From contig CBDEFY010000006.1 of assembly GCA_965237595.1 (NCBI GenBank), positions 168,671 through 232,670 on the forward strand: a DNA stretch of 64,000 nt, written 5' to 3'. A program made the position numbers and the translations under genes. The notes below the pieces were generated by a model. It saw nothing but the letters and a program-made list of their open reading frames with translations, made no database searches and had not been told where the DNA came from. This document shows, piece after piece, positions 1,045 to 60,080 of this stretch (position 1 is the first letter of the stretch; the number at the start of each line of letters is the position of its first letter). The DNA comes from Dehalococcoidia bacterium. Its GTDB lineage: Bacteria > Chloroflexota > Dehalococcoidia > Lucifugimonadales > UBA3495.

Positions 1045-2208
1045 CTACCAATAATCACTCGTTGGCCCTTCTTTACCGGTGGGGAGAGAGCGCATGATAT
1101 CGCCGTGGTTGCCGGGCAGGTAGTCGAAGAAGCATACGCCGTAGTGCCCGAATTCTTGGTCGGCGGCAAAAAGATCCGTCCAGGCCGGATTTGGCGTGAC
1201 ATTGTTCGGCGTTCGCACATCGTAAAGGCCAAAGTCGACAAAGATGTTTGAGGGGAATATCCCAACCGAAGTGCCGACGACCTCTCCTTGTTCGATCCAC
1301 ACCGGCGGATTGATAAAGCTGGATCTGCTGTCATCGGCAACGGGAGCCGGCAGGAAGCTGAGTGCGTCCGATAGTATTGGGGACACCACGCGCACGTGAT
1401 CGAACCGATAGAAAAATCCGCATGGCACCGAGAAAAACAGCAGGTACTGTTCGTCGCTGCCCTCTAGATATCGGGCTGCTTGTACCAAGTGGGAGCCGAT
1501 TGGAGCTCGGACCGTGATATTGCCGCCAGTATTCGCATCGAAGCGAAATCCGCCATGACCTTTATAGCCACCGCGCACCTGACCGGGCCACAGCGCCGAA
1601 GTTACCAAATCCATGTCCACAGGCGTCTGTAAGCCGAGGGGCTCTGAGCAATCTGGCGGCGTGCCGCTTGGCGACCAACTCGTTCCCTCGAACGACCATC
1701 TAACGCCGGATGTAGCGCCGGAAGTGACGGTATGACCGTCATTGCTTGTGGCCTGTTGCGTTTCGTTTGACCCCGCATGAGCGGCTTCGGGAGTGGGCCC
1801 TTGAATGGGTTCGGACGCTGTTGCAACAACAGAATTGGGTAGCTCTGAATTCCGCAAGAGCGTCGGTGTGATTCTTTCGGTGCGTACCCCGGTCGTAACC
1901 GTGAGGTCAAGCGCGATCGATTGGTTTGTCTCTTTAGAGGTGATGCCTTCTATGTGCCAATGCAACTTCGCCTTTTCGCCCGGATGTACGAGTAGGGTTT
2001 CTCCTTGGTAGGAAGAGGGCGGAATCATTTTGTATTCAATCCGGTCCCAACTGGCCCGAGACGGGAATTTTCCCCAGGTGCCGCTGTATTGCGCCCGCGG
2101 ACTGCCGTTCTCCGTGAACGTCATCTTTGGCGACTTAAATTCAATGACTTGGTCGCTTTCGTTGTAGGCCAAAATTTCCGTCTCGTCCGCAGAGAGATTG
2201 CTGAAATC
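1045..2208 (-). pseudogene. secreted lipoprotein, C-terminal 387 codons, separated from its 5' part by IS3 copy A
   Basis: The reading frame stays open up to the IS junction at 2208. Joining 3913..3545 to 2208..1045 and removing one ATC TSD copy gives 1533 nt, or 510 aa, in frame (..EYYWPLDFSNLSADETEILAYNES..). Confidence 0.75.
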
Positions 2209-2280
2209 TGAGGTGGACCCGGAAATTCGGACAGGTGGTTAAGTGAGAGTTCTGCTCCTAAAATAGCCACAGCTGTTGCT

Positions 2281-2583
2281 GTGAGGGAGGAGTGGGACAT
2301 GTCAAAAGAGCGGAGGAAGCACAGCCCAACATTCAAGGCCAAGGTGGCCCTGGAAGCGGTGAAGGGTGAAGAGACGGTGGCCCAACTGGCCGCCCCCTAC
2401 GAGGTCCATCCCGGGCAGATCCAGGCCTGGAAGAAGTCCTTGTTGGAAGGAGCGGTCGGCGTCTTTGGTGGGAACCAAGACAAACGCCAGAAGAGCGATG
2501 CGGTCCTTGTTGCCCGGCTCTATCAGCAGATCGGCCAACTGAAGGTTGAGCGGGATTTCTTGGCGGAGAGGCTCGGTCCATGA
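2281..2583 (+). CDS. IS3-family transposase OrfA (HTH)
   Basis: [31 protein letters not shown]...[12 protein letters not shown] is a typical IS3/IS911 OrfA HTH plus leucine-zipper region. Its stop overlaps the orfB ATG (ATGA). Confidence 0.9.
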   Translation: MREEWDMSKERRKHSPTFKAKVALEAVKGEETVAQLAAPYEVHPGQIQAWKKSLLEGAVGVFGGNQDKRQKSDAVLVARLYQQIGQLKVERDFLAERLGP

Positions 2584-3527
2584 GCCGGGAGCGGCGGCGG
2601 GAGATGGTGGACCGGCGGCACCCAGCCTTGTCCACAGTGAGACAGTGCGCCTTACTGAGCATCAGCAGGTCCAGCCTAAACTACCGGCGCAAGGGGACTT
2701 GCTCGGAGAACCTGACCGTGATGAAGGCGATGGACCACCAGTACCTAAGTACCCCCTTCTACGGGTCGCGGCGCATGAGGGTCTGGCTGGGCACTCAAGG
2801 TCACAGGGTGAACCGGAAGCGGGTCCAGCGTCTGATGCGGACCATGGGACTACGTGCCATCTACCGGTGGCCCCGGACCAGCAAGCCGGGGCCAGGGCAC
2901 AAGGTGTATCCCTACCTCCTGAGCGGCATGGAGATCACCAGACCAAATCAGGTGTGGGCCGCCGACATCACCTACATCCCCATGGCCAAGGGTTTCTTAT
3001 ACCTGGTGGCCATCATGGATTGGTACACGCGGTACGTGGTGGCCTGGCGTCTTTCCAACACCTTGGATGCTGATTTCTGTGTCGAGACATTGGAGGAAGC
3101 GCTTGGCAAGGGGAAGCCAGAGGTCTTCAACACCGACCAGGGCAGCCAGTTCACCGGCGAAGCCTTTACCGGTCTCCTAGAGCAGCACGGAGTGAGAATC
3201 AGCATGGACGGGAAGGGACGACGCTACACCGACAACATCTTGTTGGAGCGGCTGTGGCGCACGGTTAAGTACGAGGAGGTCTACCTGAAAGCCTACTCCA
3301 ACGGGCGAGAAGCCAAGGCCGGGCTTGACGCATACTTCAGCTTCTACAACAACCAAAGACCCCACCAGGCCTTGGGCTACCGGACACCGGCTGAGGTGTT
3401 CAAAGGAGACTTGGCGCCATCAGATGAACGGTCAATCAATGGGAAACGGGCACCGAACGGAGCGTTCTCAGACCTTGGAAAGACGGCGGAACTCCCACTT
3501 AGTTTTGCACCAAACCTGTCCAACTGA
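2580..3527 (+). CDS. IS3-family transposase OrfB (DDE integrase core)
   Basis: rve-type DDE motifs: WAADITYIP, FNTDQGSQFT, ERLWRTVKYEEVY. C-terminal part reads NNQRPHQALGYRTPAEVF. Confidence 0.9.
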   Translation: MSRERRREMVDRRHPALSTVRQCALLSISRSSLNYRRKGTCSENLTVMKAMDHQYLSTPFYGSRRMRVWLGTQGHRVNRKRVQRLMRTMGLRAIYRWPRTSKPGPGHKVYPYLLSGMEITRPNQVWAADITYIPMAKGFLYLVAIMDWYTRYVVAWRLSNTLDADFCVETLEEALGKGKPEVFNTDQGSQFTGEAFTGLLEQHGVRISMDGKGRRYTDNILLERLWRTVKYEEVYLKAYSNGREAKAGLDAYFSFYNNQRPHQALGYRTPAEVFKGDLAPSDERSINGKRAPNGAFSDLGKTAELPLSFAPNLSN

Positions 3528-3541
3528 TTGGGTCCACCTCA

Positions 3542-11041: not shown

Positions 11042-11451
11042 ATGCGCGACACCAGTTGGATTGACAAAGAGGAGTACCCGTTTCAGTCTCGCTACCTGGA
11101 GCTGGAAATGGGTAGGCTGCACTACGTTGACGAGGGCGAGGGAAATCCCATCGTCATGGTTCACGGCACGCCTACTTGGTCCTTCGAGTATCGGCATCTT
11201 ATCAAAGGACTTTCGAAGCGGTACCGATGCATTGCGATGGACCACATCGGCTTTGGGCTATCCGATAAGCCGAGTGAATGGTCGTATCTGCCCGAAGCGC
11301 ACGCTCGCAACGTTGAGGCGCTGATAGAGTCGCTAGGCCTTGAGGATATTACGCTCGTAGTCCATGACTTCGGTGGCCCGATCGGGCTATCGTACGCGAT
11401 TCGGCATCCAGACAAAGTGAAGCATCTCGTAATCATGAATAGCTGGATGTG
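11042..11451 (+). pseudogene. alpha/beta hydrolase (haloalkane dehalogenase-like), 5' part, interrupted by IS3 copy B and then by an IS1595-family transposon
   Basis: HYVDEGEGNPIVMVHGTPTWSFEYRHLI..LVVHDFGGPIGL..VIMNSWM. Joining 11042-11451, 12757-12782 and 18136-18575 gives 876 nt, or 291 aa, in frame. Confidence 0.85.
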
Positions 11452-11465
11452 TGAGGTGGACCCAA

Positions 11466-12382
11466 TCAGTTGGACAGGTTTGGTGCAAAACTAAGTGGGA
11501 GTTCCGCCGTCTTTCCAAGGTCTGAGAACGCTCCGTTCGGTGCCCGTTTCCCATTGATTGACCGTTCATCTGATGGCGCCAAGTCTCCTTTGAACACCTC
11601 AGCCGGTGTCCGGTAGCCCAAGGCCTGGTGGGGTCTTTAAGCCCGGCCTTGGCTTCTCGCCCGTTGGAGTAGGCTTTCAGGTAGACCTCCTCGTACTTAA
11701 CCGTGCGCCACAGCCGCTCCAACAAGATGTTGTCGGTGTAGCGTCCCTTCCCGTCCATGCTGATTCTCACTCCGTGCTGCTCTAGGAGACCGGTGAAGGC
11801 TTCGCCGGTGAACTGGCTGCCCTGGTCGGTGTTGAAGACCTCTGGCTTCCCCTTGCCAAGCGCTTCCTCCAATGTCTCGACACAGAAATCAGCATCCAAG
11901 GTGTTGGAAAGACGCCAGGCCACCACGTACCGCGTGTACCAATCCATGATGGCCACCAGGTATAAGAAACCCTTGGCCATGGGGATGTAGGTGATGTCGG
12001 CGGCCCACACCTGATTTGGTCTGGTGATCTCCATGCCGCTCAGGAGGTAGGGATACACCTTGTGCCCTGGCCCCGGCTTGCTGGTCCGGGGCCACCGGTA
12101 GATGGCACGTAGTCCCATGGTCCGCATCAGACGCTGGACCCGCTTCCGGTTCACCCTGTGACCTTGAGTGCCCAGCCAGACCCTCATGCGCCGCGACCCG
12201 TAGAAGGGGGTACTTAGGTACTGGTGGTCCATCGCCTTCATCACGGTCAGGTTCTCCAAGCAAGTCCCCTTGCGCCGGTAGTTTAGGCTGGACCTGCTGA
12301 TGCTCAGTAAGGCGCACTGTCTCACTGTGGACAAGGCTGGGTGCCGCCGGTCTACCATCTCCCGCCGCCGCTCCCGGCTCAT
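11466..12382 (-). pseudogene. IS3 OrfB, frameshifted by the 28-bp deletion
   Basis: Translation matches copy A up to ..GREAKAGL and then leaves the frame (KDPTRPWATG..). Confidence 0.85.
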
Positions 12383-12681
12383 GGACCGAGCCTCTCCGCC
12401 AAGAAATCCCGCTCAACCTTCAGTTGGCCGATCTGCTGATAGAGCCGGGCAACAAGGACCCCATCGCTCTTCTGGCGTTTGTCTTGGTTCCCACCAAAGA
12501 CGCCGACCGCTCCTTCCAACAAGGACTTCTTCCAGGCCTGGATCTGCCCGGGATGGACCTCGTAGCGGGCGGCCAGTTGGGCCACCGTCTCTTCACCCTT
12601 CACCGCTTCCAGGGCCATCTTGGCCTTGAATGTTGGGCTGTGCTTCCTCCGCTCTTTTGACATGTCCCACTCCTCCCTCAC
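12379..12681 (-). CDS. IS3-family transposase OrfA (copy B)
   Basis: 100 aa, differing from copy C OrfA at only two positions. Confidence 0.85.
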   Translation of the reverse strand: MREEWDMSKERRKHSPTFKAKMALEAVKGEETVAQLAARYEVHPGQIQAWKKSLLEGAVGVFGGNQDKRQKSDGVLVARLYQQIGQLKVERDFLAERLGP

Positions 12682-12869
12682 AGCAACAGCTGTGGCTATT
12701 TTAGGAGCAGAACTCTCACTTAACCACCTGTCCGAATTTCCGGGTCCACCTCAGTGGTCGCTCAAAGACCAGCCAAAATTTAGGGAATTATACGGAATTC
12801 TAGCCGAAACCCTTGACATCGACAACCCTTTCGGCTAAAATAATGACATAAATCAAACGGCAATCAAGA

Positions 12870-16146: not shown

Positions 16147-16218
16147 TGAGGTGGACCCGGAAATTCGGACAGGTGGTTAAGTGAGAGTTCTGCTCCTAAA
16201 ATAGCCACAGCTGTTGCT

Positions 16219-16521
16219 GTGAGGGAGGAGTGGGACATGTCAAAAGAGCGGAGGAAGCACAGCCCAACATTCAAGGCCAAGGTGGCCCTGGAAGCGGTGA
16301 AGGGTGAAGAGACGGTGGCCCAACTGGCCGCCCGCTACGAGGTCCATCCCGGGCAGATCCAGGCCTGGAAGAAGTCCTTGTTGGAAGGAGCGGTCGGCGT
16401 CTTTGGTGGGAACCAAGACAAACGCCAGAAGAGCGATGCGGTCCTTGTTGCCCGGCTCTATCAGCAGATCGGCCAACTGAAGGTTGAGCGGGATTTCTTG
16501 GCGGAGAGGCTCGGTCCATGA
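16219..16521 (+). CDS. IS3-family transposase OrfA (copy C)
   Basis: 100 aa. Best consensus version of OrfA ([10 protein letters not shown]). Confidence 0.9.
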
Positions 16522-16542
16522 GCCGGGAGCGGCGGCAGGACG

Positions 16543-17463
16543 ATGGTGGACCGGCGGCACCCAGCCTTGTCCACAGTGAGACAGTGCGCCTTACTGAGCA
16601 TCAGCAGGTCCAGCCTAAACTACCGGCGCAAGGGGACTTGCTTGGAGAACCTGACGGTGATGAAGGCGATGGACCACCAGTACCTAAGTACCCCCTTCTA
16701 CGGGTCGCGGCGCATGAGGGTCTGGCTGGGCACTCAAGGTCACAGGGTGAACCGGAAGCGGGTCCAGCGTCTGATGCGGACCATGGGACTACGTGCCATC
16801 TACCGGTGGCCCCGGACCAACAAGCCGGGGCCAGGGCACAAGGTGTATCCCTACCTCCTGAGCGGCATGGAGATCACCAGACCAAATCAGGTGTGGGCCG
16901 CCGACATCACCTACATCCCCATGGCCAAGGGTTTCTTATACCTGGTGGCCATCATGGATTGGTACACGCGGTACGTGGTGGCCTGGCGTCTTTCCAACAC
17001 CTTGGATGCTGATTTCTGTGTCGAGACATTGGAGGAAGCGCTTGGCAAGGGGAAGCCAGAGGTCTTCAACACCGACCAGGGCAGCCAGTTCACCGGCGAA
17101 GCCTTTACCGGTCTCCTAGAGCAGCACGGAGTGAGAATCAGCATGGACGGGAAGGGACGCTACACCGACAACATCTTGTTGGAGCGGCTGTGGCGCACGG
17201 TTAAGTACGAGGAGGTCTACCTGAAAGCCTACTCCAACGGGCGAGAAGCCAAGGCCGGGCTTGACGCATACTTCAGCTTCTACAACAACCAAAGACCCCA
17301 CCAGGCCTTGGGCTACCGGACACCGGCTGAGGTGTTCAAAGGAGACTTGGCGCCATCAGATGAACGGTCAATCAATGGGAAACGGGCACCGAACGGAGCG
17401 TTCTCAGACCTTGGAAAGACGGCGGAACTCTCACTTAGTTTTGCACCAAACCTGTCCAACTGA
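16543..17463 (+). CDS. IS3-family transposase OrfB (copy C), N-terminus disturbed by a frameshift; ORF restarts at an internal Met
   Basis: The canonical ATG at 16518 runs out of frame after 6 codons. An intact 306-aa DDE ORF starts at MVDRRHPALS. Confidence 0.75.
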   Translation: MVDRRHPALSTVRQCALLSISRSSLNYRRKGTCLENLTVMKAMDHQYLSTPFYGSRRMRVWLGTQGHRVNRKRVQRLMRTMGLRAIYRWPRTNKPGPGHKVYPYLLSGMEITRPNQVWAADITYIPMAKGFLYLVAIMDWYTRYVVAWRLSNTLDADFCVETLEEALGKGKPEVFNTDQGSQFTGEAFTGLLEQHGVRISMDGKGRYTDNILLERLWRTVKYEEVYLKAYSNGREAKAGLDAYFSFYNNQRPHQALGYRTPAEVFKGDLAPSDERSINGKRAPNGAFSDLGKTAELSLSFAPNLSN

Positions 17464-17480
17464 TTGGGTCCACCTCATAT

Positions 17481-30910: not shown

Positions 30911-30935
30911 CCTTCCCCCGCATCGGGGGAAGGTT
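30911..30935. repeat. GC-rich hairpin repeat, copy 1 (left part; its remainder is at 33243-33274, split by the IS4-family transposon)
   Basis: CCTTCCCCCG-CAT-CGGGGGAAGG followed by TT. The same hairpin followed by TTAGG recurs at 50806 and 60004. Confidence 0.8.
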
Positions 30936-30953
30936 GGCTTTGCACCAAAAGTC

Positions 30954-31880
30954 TTATTCCCAGGACACTTTTGGAACAACTGGCTCTTCTGTTCCAAAAG
31001 TCTCGGTGTCAAATGCCGGCTCGATGCCCAATTCGAACATGCTCGAAACGAGCACGACGATATTATGACACAAGATTTTAGCCAGCACTTCGTTGACTTG
31101 GGCCACTGGCGTCTTGGAGCGAACCGCCCCACCGAACTTGGCCTTAATCATCGAAAACGTAGTCTCCACGTTGCTGCGCTTGTGATACCTAGCCGAAAAT
31201 TCGGCTCGGTTCAAGTTGTAGAAGTGGAAGGCCCGTTCCCACAGGCCGTCACGCTTATGATGGCCGCTGTGGGCCACGGAGTTGGTCTTGAAAGGGATGT
31301 AAGCTGTTCCGCCAACTGCCTGGACTTCTCGGAGGTTCTGCCTGCTCAGATAAGCCTTGTCGCCGGAGACTTCATTGACCGTGAAGTTCTGCGCGGTGGT
31401 TTTAACGAACGGAGCCAGGTAGGGCGAGTCCGCGCTCATGGTGGTGGTCGCTTCACACGAAGTGATGATATTCGTGGAAACACCGCACATTACATGTACC
31501 TTGACCCACTGGGCTTCCTTAATCATCTTGGCCCATTTGTTGTCGAACCACCGGTGGTAGACGGATGTAGCAAAGCCGCTGGAGTCAACGGCAAAGTCTG
31601 TTTCCACAGACTTGAGCGGAAGTGCACTCTGTTCAATCAGGGATTTCAGCAAAGGGGCCAGGTCGGGATTCTCCAGATGCCGGAATGTGCTGGTGAACGA
31701 CGGGACGTTGTCCAAAAGTCCTTTGTCATGGGCGTTTCGGAAATCCGTCATCGCCCGTCTACCCGACATGGTGGAATAGACCTTAAGACCGATGCCAAAA
31801 ACTACGTCGGAGAGAGGGAGCCGGGGACGGCCAAAGGTTTGTGGCGGTTGCTCGATGGTATCGCAGAGATCACGAAGCAA
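30954..31880 (-). CDS. IS4-family DDE transposase (start uncertain; homology continues upstream to about 31960)
   Basis: DDE residues in FAVDSSGF, VSGDKAYL and NVETTF. The IS4 signature Y-(2)-R-(3)-E-(6)-K is seen in YHKRSNVETTFSMIK. The in-frame upstream sequence ..RKTYSQDWPAYNAAQTHEEERF has no canonical start codon. Confidence 0.8.
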   Translation of the reverse strand: MLRDLCDTIEQPPQTFGRPRLPLSDVVFGIGLKVYSTMSGRRAMTDFRNAHDKGLLDNVPSFTSTFRHLENPDLAPLLKSLIEQSALPLKSVETDFAVDSSGFATSVYHRWFDNKWAKMIKEAQWVKVHVMCGVSTNIITSCEATTTMSADSPYLAPFVKTTAQNFTVNEVSGDKAYLSRQNLREVQAVGGTAYIPFKTNSVAHSGHHKRDGLWERAFHFYNLNRAEFSARYHKRSNVETTFSMIKAKFGGAVRSKTPVAQVNEVLAKILCHNIVVLVSSMFELGIEPAFDTETFGTEEPVVPKVSWE

Positions 31881-32230
31881 AGCGACGAATCGTTCTTCTT
31901 CGTGCGTCTGTGCCGCGTTGTAAGCTGGCCAATCCTGGGAATAAGTCTTCCGTGGTTGGGGGAGTGTAGCCGTGGTACTATGAATGAGCGATAGTCATGG
32001 TGGAGTTACAGCCTCCATCTTGATTAGGGAGCGGCGGTGTTTCGGCACCGTTTGCTCCCGACGTGACTATATTATCGCCGATTTCAGCGAAAAAATCAAG
32101 CTGAATCGCGTCATTTCGGTGCCAATTAGGTGCGTGTTCTGGAGGATTTCGACGTACAGCGGCTCTGCTGCACATAAAATAGTTAACTCCCGCCGCCCTA
32201 TGGCGCAAGTCGTCGGGCTGCGTGGCGTTA

Positions 32231-32319
32231 TGGTGCCGAGGGCGGGGCTTGAACCCGCAAGGCGGAAAACCGCCGGTGGTTTTCAAGACCACTGCGTTTA
32301 CCAATTTCGCCACCCCGGC
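32231..32319 (-). tRNA. tRNA with anticodon UGA (Ser by anticodon) but tRNA-Leu-like body; encoded CCA
   Basis: GCCGGGG-TG-GCG-AAATTGGTAAA-CGC-A-GTGGT-CTTGAAA-ACCAC-CGGCGGTTTTCCGCCTT-GCGGG-TTCAAGC-CCCGC-CCTCGGC-A-CCA. Full class II cloverleaf with a long variable arm, A73 discriminator, and a Leu-type D arm (TGGCGAAATTGGTAAACGC). Confidence 0.85.
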
Positions 32320-32370
32320 ATGCATCAGCGGCGCGGTTATGTCTTTGCGGGCTGGCCGCGCCGTTTCTTA

Positions 32371-32826
32371 TCAAAAGGGCAGGTCATCAGCTTTGTACTC
32401 GAAGGTGTTACGAGCAATCTTTGTAAAACGGTCCGCACTGGAAAGGACCGTTCCGATAACCGCAAAGGGTTGTTTTACGCCAAGGTCAAGCCCCTGGCTG
32501 TGCAGTTCCTCAAGCACACACTGTACCTTAACCAATTCGTTGCTAGGCGGAAGGCGTCGCCAAACAGCCAGTGCAGCTTCAACTATCAATCTAGGGCGCT
32601 CGGACGTTTCAACAGTATCGAAATGTGGATCGTGGTTAAGGTCACTGGCCTCTACATTAGCGGTATCTTGCAGATAAGTACCAAGCGCAGTGATGGCCGA
32701 GAGCTGGTTTTTCAGCCTATCGAACTCGGCGTCTATCTCTTGCAACAGTTCACCGCCAAGGTCGTAAGCTGCTTGCTCACCCTCCATAGTCCAGGTGTTC
32801 ATCATTTCCTTTACATAGTCACGCAT
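32371..32826 (-). CDS. hypothetical protein (151 aa), transposon cargo
   Basis: Lower-GC ORF inside the transposon. No recognisable motif. Confidence 0.4.
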   Translation of the reverse strand: MRDYVKEMMNTWTMEGEQAAYDLGGELLQEIDAEFDRLKNQLSAITALGTYLQDTANVEASDLNHDPHFDTVETSERPRLIVEAALAVWRRLPPSNELVKVQCVLEELHSQGLDLGVKQPFAVIGTVLSSADRFTKIARNTFEYKADDLPF

Positions 32827-32909
32827 GTGTCATATCTCCGCACTGATAGTTACAGTACCCAGTGCCAACTGCGTGAGTATACTACATTACTGTCAGTAGT
32901 ATCACCACT

Positions 32910-33113
32910 ATGATAAGAGAGTACGTCTACACGATCCAAGAGGCAGCAGATGTTCTTGCGGTCAATCGGGAGACAGTGAGGCGGTGGATGGTGGCCGGAA
33001 AACTCGCAGGAGAGAATATTGGTGGTGCCGTGCTATTGCCTCGGTGGGCCGTTGAAATGATTAAGCAAGAACGACAAACGAGAAGCCAAAAGCAACGCCG
33101 GGGTAAGAAATAA
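32910..33113 (+). CDS. helix-turn-helix DNA-binding protein, excisionase/MerR-like family
   Basis: YTIQEAADVLAVNRETVRRWMVAGKL is a typical excisionase-family HTH. Basic C-terminal tail. Confidence 0.6.
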   Translation: MIREYVYTIQEAADVLAVNRETVRRWMVAGKLAGENIGGAVLLPRWAVEMIKQERQTRSQKQRRGKK

Positions 33114-33331
33114 CGTGGCTCTTACTTTTGATTCAACATGGACTTTAGGTGCAAAGCCCGTGGGAGATATAAAGTAGGGGTTCGTGACCTTTTGGAACAA
33201 CCGACCGACTTTAGGAACAGATGCTACTTATGGAGCAAAGCCGGGGAAGGTTAGGATGGGGGCCACCCCTCACCTAAGCCGTCTCAGAGCAGGAACCAAA
33301 ATCCAAAAATTCCTACCTTCGGAGCAATAAA

Positions 33332-35061: not shown

Positions 35062-36008
35062 TTAGTTGGACAGGTTTGGTGCAAAACTAAGTGGGAGTTC
35101 CGCCGTCTTTCCAAGGTCTGAGAACGCTCCGTTCGGTGCCCGTTTCCCATTGATTGACCGTTCATCTGATGGCGCCAAGTCTCCTTTGAACACCTCAGCC
35201 GGTGTCCGGTAGCCCAAGGCCTGGTGGGGTCTTTGGTTGTTGTAGAAGCTGAAGTATGCGTCAAGCCCGGCCTTGGCTTCTCGCCCGTTGGAGTAGGCTT
35301 TCAGGTAGACCTCCTCGTACTTAACCGTGCGCCACAGCCGCTCCAACAAGATGTTGTCGGTGTAGCGTCCCTTCCCGTCCATGCTGATTCTCACTCCGTG
35401 CTGCTCTAGGAGACCGGTAAAGGCTTCGCCGGTGAACTGGCTGCCCTGGTCGGTGTTGAAGACCTCTGGCTTCCCCTTGCCAAGCGCTTCCTCCAATGTC
35501 TCGACACAGAAATCAGCATCCAAGGTGTTGGAAAGACGCCAGGCCACCACGTACCGCGTGTACCAATCCATGATGGCCACCAGGTATAAGAAACCCTTGG
35601 CCATGGGGATGTAGGTGATGTCGGCGGCCCACACCTGATTTGGTCTGGTGATCTCCATGCCGCTCAGGAGGTAGGGATACACCTTGTGCCCTGGCCCCGG
35701 CTTGCTGGTCCGGGGCCACCGGTAGATGGCACGTAGTCCCATGGTCCGCATCAGACACGCTGGACCCGCTTCCGGTTCACCCTGTGACCTTGAGTGCCCA
35801 GCCAGACCCTCATGCGCCGCGACCCGTAGAAGGGGGTACTTAGGTACTGGTGGTCCATCGCCTTCATCACGGTCAGGTTCTCCGAGCAAGTCCCCTTGCG
35901 CCGGTAGTTTAGGCTGGACCTGCTGATGCTCAGTAAGGCGCACTGTCTCACTGTGGACAAGGCTGGGTGCCGCCGGTCCACCATCTCCCGCCGCCGCTCC
36001 CGGCTCAT
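35062..36008 (-). pseudogene. IS3 OrfB (copy D), frameshifted
   Basis: The N-terminal 85 codons (35751-36008) and the remaining DDE core are in different frames because of the 2-nt insertion. Confidence 0.85.
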
Positions 36009-36307
36009 GGACCGAGCCTCTCCGCCAAGAAATCCCGCTCAACCTTCAGTTGGCCGATCTGCTGATAGAGCCGGGCAACAAGGACCCCATCGCTCTTCTG
36101 GCGTTTGTCTTGGTTCCCACCAAAGACGCCGACCGCTCCTTCCAACAAGGACTTCTTCCAGGCCTGGATCTGCCCGGGATGGACCTCGTAGCGGGCGGCC
36201 AGTTGGGCCACCGTCTCTTCACCCTTCACCGCTTCCAGGGCCACCTTGGCCTTGAATGTTGGGCTGTGCTTCCTCCGCTCTTTTGACATGTCCCACTCCT
36301 CCCTCAC
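36005..36307 (-). CDS. IS3-family transposase OrfA (copy D)
   Basis: Intact 100-aa OrfA. Confidence 0.85.
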
Positions 36308-50805: not shown

Positions 50806-50897
50806 CCCTTCCCGCGCTGGGGGAAGGTTAGGTCCCCCGATGTCCCGATACCATCGGGAGGGAGACTCTCGACCTTGTCGGAGATGGGGCGTTGCCC
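50806..50897. repeat. GC-rich hairpin repeat, copy 2 (long form)
   Basis: CCTTCCC-GCGCT-GGGGGAAGG, then TTAGGTCC, then an about 50-nt insert with its own hairpins (CCCGATACCATCGGG), then GGAGATGGGGCGTTGCCC. Intergenic. Confidence 0.75.
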
Positions 50898-60003: not shown

Positions 60004-60080
60004 CCTTCCCCCGCTGGGGGAAGGTTAGGTCCGACGAAGTCGAGACTCACGACGAAGTCGGAGACGGGGGCAACCCCTCA
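60004..60080. repeat. GC-rich hairpin repeat, copy 3 (long form)
   Basis: CCTTCCCCC-GCT-GGGGGAAGG, then TTAGGTCC, then GACGAAGTCGAGAC-TCAC-GACGAAGTCGGAGAC, then GGGGGCAACCCCTCA. Confidence 0.75.

Follow-up and report, generated by a model that had tools for sequence, protein, structure and literature searches.

The DNA analysed here is a stretch of 64,000 nucleotides, hereafter the window, from a Dehalococcoidia bacterium (contig CBDEFY010000006.1, positions 168,671 to 232,670; all coordinates below without a locus name are those of the window). Between two genes that both match the Pfam family LigB (PF02900), it holds a transposon with a tRNA gene among its cargo. The element is 2,307 bp long (30936-33242) and is enclosed by 17-nt terminal inverted repeats (IRs) that agree at 15 of 17 positions: GGCTTTGCACCAAAAGT at the transposase-proximal end (30936-30952, + strand), whose GGCTTTG terminus is kept across the relatives and in IS903B, and GGCTTTGCTCCATAAGT, read on the - strand, at the cargo-side end (33226-33242). 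A perfect 10-bp direct repeat, GGGGAAGGTT, borders it as a target-site duplication (TSD) at 30926-30935 and 33243-33252, the second copy being followed by the AGG.. tail of a hairpin repeat. In the direction of the transposase, the order is the cargo-side IR with subterminal repeats, a divergent gene for a 67-amino-acid (aa) helix-turn-helix (HTH) protein, a 151-aa open reading frame (ORF151), a stem-loop, the tRNA slot, a leader of about 230 nt with a promoter-like site, the transposase and the second IR. The G+C content of the element is 0.47-0.58, compared with about 0.60-0.64 in the flanks.

The termini stand out from the rest of the window. A degenerate pattern of the IR had four matches in the 64 kb, all within the element, where 0.31 were expected, and none of 100 shuffled sequences reached four. 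A 13-bp subterminal motif, TGYWCCWAAAGTC, counted at up to two mismatches, occurs three times at the left end (30941-31002; starts at 30941 on the + strand, 30966 on the - strand and 30990 on the + strand) and four times on the - strand at the right end (33141-33237; starts at 33141, 33187, 33207 and 33225); at up to one mismatch there were five matches against 0.32 expected. An internal copy of the left IR, identical at 17 of 18 positions, lies at 33141-33158. Repeated IR cores were also found in the ends of three relatives (loci L048, L053 and L065), and multi-copy subterminal repeats are a feature of the transposon family. An earlier reading of this DNA, made from the sequence alone, had named the IRs, the perfect repeat, the three and four motif copies and the internal IR duplicate, and all of them were recovered in our analysis. 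Its cargo list (a tRNA, a 151-aa ORF and an excisionase-type HTH gene) agreed with ARAGORN, Rfam and profile searches, and the proposed insertion between two LigB-like paralogs with a 10-bp duplication agreed with the PF02900 matches of both neighbours and the perfect TSD.

That a transposon encloses the tRNA, ORF151 and the HTH gene, as had been claimed, was established by its other copies. A complete 2,307-bp element, 100% identical, was found at locus L090 between two short-chain dehydrogenase genes near a histidine-biosynthesis cluster, bordered by AACCTTCCCC and AACGTTCCCC, which match as a TSD at 9 of 10 positions. Locus L091, from an independent assembly, reproduces the window locus, with 100% identity along 6,972 bp. 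Transposases 99% (P0001), 84% (P0002) and 80% (P0007) identical to that of the window belong to elements of 2,309, 2,231 and 2,245 bp (L001, L002 and L003), which lie in unrelated contexts and share the order of a small ORF, an ORF of about 150 aa, a tRNA and the transposase; the TSD is ACCCCAGCCA in L001 and CCCTTTTGTT in L003. A metagenome scan with the leader pattern gave two chance matches and one further element of the same architecture, the fifth, split across contigs L088 and L089 and flanked by the TSD CCCTGAGGG. Since an identical copy lies at a second locus and several relatives sit at unrelated sites with 9-10-bp TSDs of their own, the tRNA moves as cargo. These results demonstrate that the whole 2,307-bp unit moved as one into a hairpin of the repetitive extragenic palindromic (REP) type between the LigB paralogs, and they exclude an artefact of assembly.

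The same applies to a wider family. Sixteen elements could be delimited by IRs and a perfect 9-10-bp TSD, and all measure 2.2-6.8 kb, so that every one carries passengers. A tRNA is present in six of them and the remaining ones gave no Rfam tRNA match; passengers in tRNA-less relatives include an N6/N4 DNA methylase (L006), a DUF4411/PIN and IrrE-HTH pair (L011) and HSDR_N proteins (L021 and L028). In a Dehalococcoidia metagenome-assembled genome (MAG), a 4,176-bp element (L005 2160-6335, the same as L010; OZ240207.1), whose transposase is of the SWIM type described below, interrupts a GmrSD (type IV restriction) gene. Its IRs are perfect over 16 nt and its TSD is CGGGCAAAAG; as passengers it has a trypsin-like protease, a tRNA-like sequence below the threshold (anticodon UAG), and two ORFs, one of 149 aa and one of the zinc-ribbon type. 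The closest relatives of the window element come from Dehalococcoidia MAGs, and distant ones from Planctomycetota, Acidobacteriota, Myxococcota and DPANN/Hadesarchaea.

The tRNA and its slot

The tRNA gene (32231-32319, - strand) is 89 nt long and of class II, with the anticodon UGA, A73 and an encoded CCA. It is the sole tRNA found by ARAGORN in the 64 kb, scores 58.3 bits against the Rfam tRNA model, and has a 5-bp variable stem together with a normal 7-bp acceptor stem and 5-bp T stem (ARAGORN, Rfam). Its body was typed with blastn searches of E. coli genomes and of phages, at E<=10. Across 5,426 E. coli genomes it matched essentially one locus per genome, at about 71% identity over the full length; every listed E. 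coli match is annotated as tRNA-Leu, and so are all annotated phage matches. In the one E. coli match that was inspected (H17), the gene is the third of a tRNA-Gly/tRNA-Cys/tRNA-Leu cluster and was read as leuZ, tRNA-Leu(UAA), with which the window tRNA shares the D arm and the format of the variable arm.

A tRNA-Ser follows the discriminator rule G73. Of the canonical tRNA-Ser features, the window tRNA has the long variable arm and UGA, and lacks a Ser-type body and G73; of those of tRNA-Leu, it has the Leu-type body and A73, and lacks a leucine anticodon (NAG/NAA). On these features the tRNA is assigned a Leu-type body (leuZ-like, A73) with the serine anticodon UGA. The cargo had previously been called a class II tRNA, which is right as to class, and the UGA anticodon is there, but it is not an ordinary tRNA-Ser. 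The same Leu-type body occurs with other anticodons: L100 has it with UGC, for an alanine codon, and L058 and L034 have it with UUA, for ochre (alignment A3). Between the window and L100, the tRNAs differ at 6 of 17 positions in the anticodon arm and at 4 of 55 elsewhere, with the stem changes compensated, and UGA is one substitution from the leuZ-type UAA. Bacterial leucyl- and seryl-tRNA synthetases recognise their tRNAs without reading the anticodon, and such tRNAs can therefore stay chargeable after the anticodon has changed.

An alignment of four elements (A1) showed conservation on both sides of the tRNA: the cargo-side IR, about 55 bp of subterminal DNA next to it and a stem-loop block that begins directly after the stop codon of the ~150-aa ORF on one side, and, 3' of the tRNA, the leader of about 230 nt, the transposase and the second IR on the other. 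The tRNA slot between these blocks is a feature of the family, filled by different tRNAs, by a degenerate cloverleaf or by nothing. The 89-nt class II tRNA with UGA is found in the window, L002 and L090; a 74-nt class I tRNA with ACU in L001, which is elsewhere 97-99% identical to the window; a 76-nt tRNA with CUA (amber) in L003; and a 77-nt tRNA with CCC in L088/L089. In L092 the slot holds a cloverleaf-shaped, loop-degenerate sequence, and in L022/L023 it is empty, the stem-loop being followed almost directly by the CCTTAAC.. that elsewhere follows the tRNA. In the same alignment, the window resembles an L001-type backbone with an L002-type patch over tRNA and leader, which argues that recombination among family members reshuffles the slot.

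This arrangement is not confined to the closest relatives. In 85 non-redundant family loci ARAGORN found 27 tRNAs, at least 12 of which lie within 1.6 kb upstream of the transposase on the same strand, compared with 1.8 expected (binomial p = 4e-8); a count corrected by hand for six SWIM-less cases that the script had misplaced gives 18. The slot tRNAs of the retested set score 49-73 bits against Rfam except for that of L005, with about 41 bits for those of L033 and L062. Most slot tRNAs appear to carry an anticodon at odds with their body, nonsense anticodons included. L030 combines a Ser-type body (phage tRNA-Ser matches) with UCA (opal), class II slot tRNAs carry UGC, UUA (twice), UCA, GCC and GAU, and class I slot tRNAs carry the Ser/Leu anticodons ACU, GCU and GAG, plus CUA. 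Three slot tRNAs have anticodon loops of 6 or 8 nt, and the three 'Ala' ones lack G3:U70. When the bodies were typed by BLAST, L005 and L003 gave no informative match and L001 was ambiguous (Lys or Arg). As a separate observation, the slot tRNA of L033 (5084-5157; 40.6 bits in Rfam) has an 8-nt anticodon loop (CGCA), the classic format of a +1 frameshift suppressor, and in the same locus a single right IR has two candidate partners on the left (3111 and 4866).

In the window, a conserved stem-loop (CGGCGCGG..CCGCGCCG; 32329-32363, - strand) follows right after the ORF151 stop codon and ends 9 nt 5' of the tRNA; within the window clade its stem GGCGYGG...CCRCGCC shows a compensatory C:G/T:A change. 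A strong stem-loop ends 3-14 nt before the 5' end of the tRNA in at least 14 of 18 cases, and the sequences of these stem-loops are unrelated. Nearly all of the tRNAs clustered before the transposase also lie beside a ~150-aa coiled-coil/winged-helix gene. Five ordinary-looking tRNAs in the same loci have no preceding hairpin, and three further 'control' tRNAs that do have one (the 85-nt 'Pro' tRNAs of L048 and L067, and that of L032) are themselves suspect. Two hairpins before tRNAs, in L034 (5291-5350, Planctomycetota) and L081 (5213-5272, Phycisphaerales), are alike (GGGCCGRGCGTCT.GTACACG.CTCGGCCC) in loci that are otherwise unrelated. Irregular-looking tRNAs also lie outside the insertion sequences (ISs), at L048 8802-8886, L067 1508-1592, L032 7368-7440 and L040 7341-7440; the 85-nt tRNAs of L048 and L067 read as 'Pro(UGG)', and one of the four is a 100-nt 'Asp'. 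The hairpins before those of L048, L067 and L032 suggest further hairpin-tRNA modules nearby.

Accessory genes, transposase and insertion site

ORF151 (32371-32826, - strand) encodes a protein with a long N-terminal helical hairpin, a winged-helix domain and a conserved C-terminal DDLPF. It matched no Pfam, NCBIfam, PADLOC or PHROG profile, and none of the 55 homologs on record in other assemblies is annotated; an alignment of the family (A2) shows the conserved core GLDLGVQQPLAVIGTVL..F.KIARNTFEY. The AlphaFold model (pLDDT 86.7) consists of the helical hairpin and the winged helix, and Foldseek returned only generic winged-helix matches from the PDB (Rok, cullin WHB and MCM WH, E>=0.03). With no profile match and generic structural matches at such E-values, assignment to a known family was rejected. 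In A2 the C-terminus (window 32371-32388) is a conserved DDLPF or DDLPW behind a variable linker, a tail that we take to resemble the C-terminal protein-interaction tip of SSB. ORFs of about 150 aa in L002, L003, L005 and L058 are of like size and position, and those of L002 and L005, when read, showed a coiled-coil/winged-helix-like pattern; jackhmmer and hmmsearch linked only the ORFs of the window, L001 and L022/L023, and detected no link to L002, L003, L005 or L058.

The association of ORF151 with hairpin and tRNA is also seen outside ISs. In L096-L099 an ORF151 homolog precedes a hairpin and a class II tRNA of 92 nt with the anticodon GCC, and in L100 one precedes a hairpin and the Leu-type UGC tRNA; homologs without a tRNA occur in L022/L023 and L102. 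A scan of viral contigs with the ORF151 profile gave one homolog, with no adjacent tRNA. Divergent from ORF151 lies the gene for the 67-aa protein (32910-33113, + strand), a DNA-binding protein of the HTH_17/excisionase family by profile searches. The intergenic region contains a promoter-like GTGATA-18-TATACT upstream of ORF151 (32876-32905, - strand), which is a consensus match only. The conserved leader between tRNA and transposase (31999-32230, - strand) holds a sigma-70-like TTGATT-17-GATAAT (32099-32071), a putative promoter by consensus, as well as a stem GGGAGC..GCTCCC and a GGAGG before the ATG.

The transposase gene (30954-31998, - strand, with the ATG at 31998-31996) encodes, in its intact form, a DDE transposase of 347 aa. 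It matches PF01609 (DDE_Tnp_1) at 7.7e-17, above the cut-off. The best NCBIfam model is transpos_IS5_2, with 118 bits, below its cut-off of 140 bits, and transpos_IS4_1, for which the cut-off is 115, reaches 22.2 bits without any single stretch that passes by itself. A tblastn search of 72,556 plasmids returned only transposases annotated as 'IS5 family' or 'IS5-like', at about 25% identity. Eighty genome loci were recovered with the transposase; their termini start with GGCTTTG and their duplications measure 9-10 bp, the 10-bp form belonging to the window clade and the 9-bp form to members further removed. The IS903B end, GGCTTTGTTGAATAAATCG, was confirmed under IS903B annotations in >5,000 plasmids. 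Most relatives have transposases of about 435 aa with an N-terminal SWIM zinc finger (PF04434), which the window clade lacks.

The sequence-only reading had placed the element in the IS4 family by its Y-(2)-R-(3)-E-(6)-K signature. The motif is indeed present, as YHKRSNVETTFSMIK, but it is common to IS4 and IS903/IS5-type transposases and does not separate the two families, and the family proposed does not hold in view of the 22 and 118 bits given above. With the IS5 profile as the best one, relatives annotated as IS5, the IS903B-like GGCTTTG termini and TSDs of 9-10 bp, we classify the element as a distant, IS903-like member of the IS5 family, a passenger-carrying IS.

In the window the reading frame of the transposase is broken. 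An extra base at 31982 (codon 6-7) gives ATG ACT ATC GCT CAT TCA TAG T.., where the relatives start ATG ACT ATC ACT CAT TAT AGT ACC... (MTITHYSTT...). The longest uninterrupted ORF is 308 aa from a TTG at 31880, without 39 conserved N-terminal residues including QDWPAYNAAQT. The 1-nt insertion is common to the window and the identical L090 copy, and hence the frameshifted element either transposed itself or was mobilised in trans; a 79%-identical transposase of the SWIM type (L004) was recovered from the sample that also gave L091. A transposase for the window copy would have to come from a +1 shift at UCA-UAG, from a start further downstream or, in trans, from a relative, and the copy is for that reason probably non-autonomous or of weak activity. 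The premature stop, within 31978-31998 (- strand), is preceded by UCA, the gene's only one and the codon of the element's own tRNA, and a +1 shift at UCA-UAG would restore the 347-aa frame; we note this match of codon and tRNA as a coincidence of possible interest and not as a finding.

The element lies in a REP-like hairpin (CCTTCCCCC-GCATC-GGGGGAAGG), whose left part occupies 30911-30935 (+ strand) and ends with the first TSD copy as its last 10 nt. Deletion in silico of the element and one TSD copy restored CCTTCCCCCGCATCGGGGGAAGGTTAGG, which is this hairpin followed by TTAGG. The hairpin had been described as intact elsewhere in the window. This is true of the repeat family, since two uninterrupted sister hairpins with the same GGTTAGG tail, reading CCTTCCC(C/G)CGCTGGGGGAAGGTTAGGTCC, lie at 50810-50832 and 60004-60029, but not of the identical sequence, the exact 28-mer of the restored hairpin having no second occurrence in the window. 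Without the element, L090 reads CCTAACCTTCCCCC-TTGCGA-GGGGGAAGG, the same hairpin family with the same insertion position. The TSD sequences of the relatives are unrelated, so that the hairpin preference may be confined to this clone. Exact-protein look-ups with the transposase and with LigB-2 returned nothing, and no empty LigB-LigB spacer was obtained. The region is rich in ISs: an unrelated IS3-family element (HTH_Tnp_1 and rve ORFs) is present in copies more than 99% alike at 2208-3541, 11451-12755, 16147-17477 and about 35062-36307, the last only 1.8 kb from the element studied here.

Role of the tRNA

Taken together, the locus is likely to be best explained overall as an IS5/IS903-like transposon that carries a tRNA with a Leu-type body and the anticodon UGA in a slot of its family, with putative roles in RNA processing and recoding. 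ORF151 and the tRNA would be co-transcribed from the divergent promoter region, RNase P would cut at the 5' end of the tRNA, and 3' processing would free it. This cleavage would leave an ORF151 mRNA ending in the conserved 3' stem-loop, and would separate upstream transcription from the transposase, which has a promoter-like site of its own. We lean towards such a processing step, with co-transcription, release of the tRNA, a stem-loop-capped mRNA and an uncoupled transposase. The mature tRNA, with its Leu-type body, A73 and encoded CCA, would be charged, most likely with leucine, and would read UCA. The chances seem to us about even that it is chargeable and translationally active at UCA, as a recoding or missense tRNA and not a spare housekeeping tRNA. 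In the host (62% G+C) UCA is rare, making up 8% of Ser codons, or 4.6 per 1000.

Three simpler roles were considered and rejected. Supplementation of codons in the element's own genes does not apply, there being no UCA among the 34 Ser codons of its three genes. Suppressor tRNAs decoding stops in the transposase were looked for in L003 (CUA), L058 and L034 (UUA) and L030 (UCA), and tblastn found no in-frame stops there; those in the transposases of L033, L079 and others do not fit their tRNAs. Also discarded was the idea that the leader holds a T-box-like specifier pairing with the anticodon of the slot tRNA, because no consistent covariation could be seen by eye in A1.

Several points weigh against the explanation that we favour. 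What it says of the expression, processing and charging of the tRNA is read from sequence, the body type was called from similarity to E. coli and phage tRNAs and not from isotype models or the host tRNA set, and promoter-like sites are no commoner than in shuffled sequence (two found, 1.6 expected) and are consensus matches only. The absence of UCA from its genes leaves the element without a need for the tRNA. A decoding-competent tRNA is dispensable for the element, as seen from the empty slot of L022/L023, the degenerate one of L092, the sub-threshold tRNA of L005 and the 6- and 8-nt loops, so that selection may act on some property other than decoding. One would expect a missense tRNA that replaces Ser by Leu to be costly, and a benefit to element or host is conjectural. 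Finally, the frameshift makes autonomous activity of the window copy doubtful.

In an alternative reading, which we consider possible, if rather unlikely, the tRNA is purely a structural module for RNA processing or insulation and is never used in translation. Any substrate of RNases P and Z would then serve, and the anticodon would drift freely; cleavage would give the mRNA of the accessory gene a hairpin-capped 3' end and destroy read-through before the transposase. A hairpin-tRNA composite kept across unrelated sequences, the constant co-orientation of the tRNA with the winged-helix gene and the transposase, the slots that are empty or degenerate, the irregular loop lengths and the promoter-like site of the transposase downstream of the tRNA all fit such a module. 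RNase P, however, needs just the acceptor and T arms; the preservation of D arms and anticodon stems, of U33 and of 7-nt loops, with Rfam scores of 49-73 bits, goes beyond this requirement. Moreover, the anticodon arm changes faster than the rest with compensatory changes in its stem, and Leu and Ser bodies, whose synthetases ignore the anticodon, fit a retained chargeability.

More speculatively, the winged-helix gene, the hairpin and the anticodon-reassigned tRNA may form a mobile functional module with a role in defence or as a toxic RNA, a suggestion that we hold tentatively and think unlikely. As a defence, chargeable tRNAs would misread rare A-ending sense codons or stop codons and so corrupt the proteins of AT-richer incoming DNA; defence at the level of translation would be in keeping with what sister elements carry (methylase, PIN/IrrE and HsdR-N). 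As a toxin, the tRNA itself would be a toxic RNA held in check by its winged-helix partner. The swaps of tRNA bodies between conserved hairpin flanks would then be cassette-like exchange, with diversifying selection on the anticodon arm.

It is improbable that the tRNA is a functionless hitch-hiker, that is, a captured, redundant host tRNA-Leu that is decaying and obtained its anticodon by chance mutation. UGA lies a single substitution from the leuZ-type anticodon, empty and degenerate slots exist, and the element's genes use no UCA, all as one would expect of such a passenger; but close relatives have no fewer than five different tRNA bodies in precisely this slot, with conserved flanks on either side, the enrichment of tRNAs upstream of the transposase holds across phyla, the cloverleaves score highly, and the hairpin recurs before the tRNA. 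The module of winged-helix gene, hairpin and tRNA exists outside ISs too (L096-L100), and repeated independent retention argues for selection. That the tRNA, ORF151 and the HTH gene are ancestral chromosome beside a real IS of about 1 kb (30936 to about 31965), the outer IR being a solo end or chance, is hardly credible: a 17-nt inverted match does link 30949-30965 to 31933-31949, and the internal copy at 33141-33158 is an instance of an IR-like sequence that is not terminal. The match near 32000, where the sequence-only reading had allowed for a shorter transposon end, nevertheless lies in conserved N-terminal transposase codons (PRKTYSQDW) and has neither the GGCTTTGC terminus nor a TSD. The perfect TSD borders the unit of 2,307 bp, every delimited family member measures at least 2.2 kb, and the identical whole unit at L090 and the relatives L001 and L003 in unrelated contexts refute the ancestral-chromosome reading.

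Comparison with known systems

The closest known relatives are the members of the IS903 group of IS5, with which the element shares a DDE_Tnp_1 transposase of about 310-350 aa, the Y-2-R-3-E-6-K motif, the GGCTTTG termini and a 9-bp TSD (10 bp in the window clade). It differs from them in its distance (only about 25% identity to annotated IS5 elements, and an IS5_2 score of 118 under the cut-off of 140), in the N-terminal SWIM finger of most of its relatives and the several subterminal repeats of the ends, and in that every delimited relative has 1-5 kb of passenger DNA, including a coiled-coil/winged-helix gene beside the transposase. Insertion sequences with passenger genes are known as transporter ISs (tIS) in the ISfinder concept. 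The window element is alike in that one transposase and one IR pair surround genes not needed for transposition, and different in that its passenger is a tRNA in a dedicated, conserved slot; the literature searched yielded no account of an IS family with a slot of this kind. The sequence-only reading had likened the ends to those of Tn7 or Mu. This is a resemblance of end architecture and goes no further, as no TnsC/MuB-like ATPase and no second transposition protein accompany it: among the element's proteins other than the transposase (the 67-aa HTH and 151-aa winged-helix proteins) no Tn7/Mu-type ATPase domain was found. The insertion sequences IS1397 and ISKpn1, which target REP sequences or hairpins, belong to the IS3 family. 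As with these, two independent insertions of the identical element share one position within the 5' arm of intergenic hairpins of a single repeat family; in contrast to them, it is no IS3-family member and its relatives have unrelated TSDs.

tRNA genes are the textbook targets of integration and not cargo of transposons. tRNAs and tRNA-like structures are also known to define the 3' ends of other RNAs, as in mitochondrial tRNA punctuation and in MALAT1-mascRNA. The proposed RNase P cut would likewise make the 3' end of an upstream RNA, which an adjacent structure would protect; the cases named are eukaryotic or organellar, and the likeness is an analogy only. Phages carry suppressor and supplementary tRNAs, for example the gut phages that recode stop codons (PMC10879173). 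Here too a mobile element brings its own tRNA, sometimes a nonsense suppressor, with an RNA-processing structure adjacent. In contrast to the phages, relatives with a suppressor tRNA show no in-frame stops in their transposases, codon usage gives the window element no need of its tRNA, and the carrier is a 2.3-kb DDE transposon with a plain upstream hairpin and not a 3' ribozyme, no Rfam ribozyme match having been found.

The nearest parallel to the tRNAs themselves is that of the allo-tRNAs. Their defining features are acceptor/T branches of 8/4 or 9/3 and an identity for Ser (PMC5389517; irregular tRNA review PMC7609411); they are charged and used in E. coli with arbitrary anticodons, and are loosely associated with a 'transposon-related protein' and with toxin-antitoxin loci (Mukai et al. 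2017, PMC5389517). Both groups comprise well-folded tRNAs whose anticodon is unmatched to the body, with nonsense or missense anticodons and synthetases that ignore the anticodon. The window tRNA differs in its 7/5 cloverleaf and Leu-type body, and a defined IS family, a fixed slot, an upstream hairpin and a winged-helix partner are not described in PMC5389517.

In summary, tIS and irregular tRNAs were already known, and what is new is the recurrent, slot-like carriage of anticodon-mismatched tRNAs by a widespread family of DDE ISs. The slot tRNAs break the rule that body and anticodon agree, with a Leu body bearing a Ser or Ala anticodon, nonsense anticodons and loops of 6 or 8 nt. If they are charged, small transposons would spread codon-reassigning tRNAs through Dehalococcoidia and other uncultured phyla, which would be relevant to the origin of deviations in the genetic code, to mistranslation as a trait open to selection and perhaps to defence. 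Uncharged, they would be a clear bacterial case of a tRNA that serves for mRNA processing or as an insulator. As natural, anticodon-blind scaffolds, they are of interest for genetic-code engineering. In either case, compared with the irregular tRNAs that had been linked only loosely to transposons (PMC5389517), the family described here provides a concrete genomic home and a testable partner protein.

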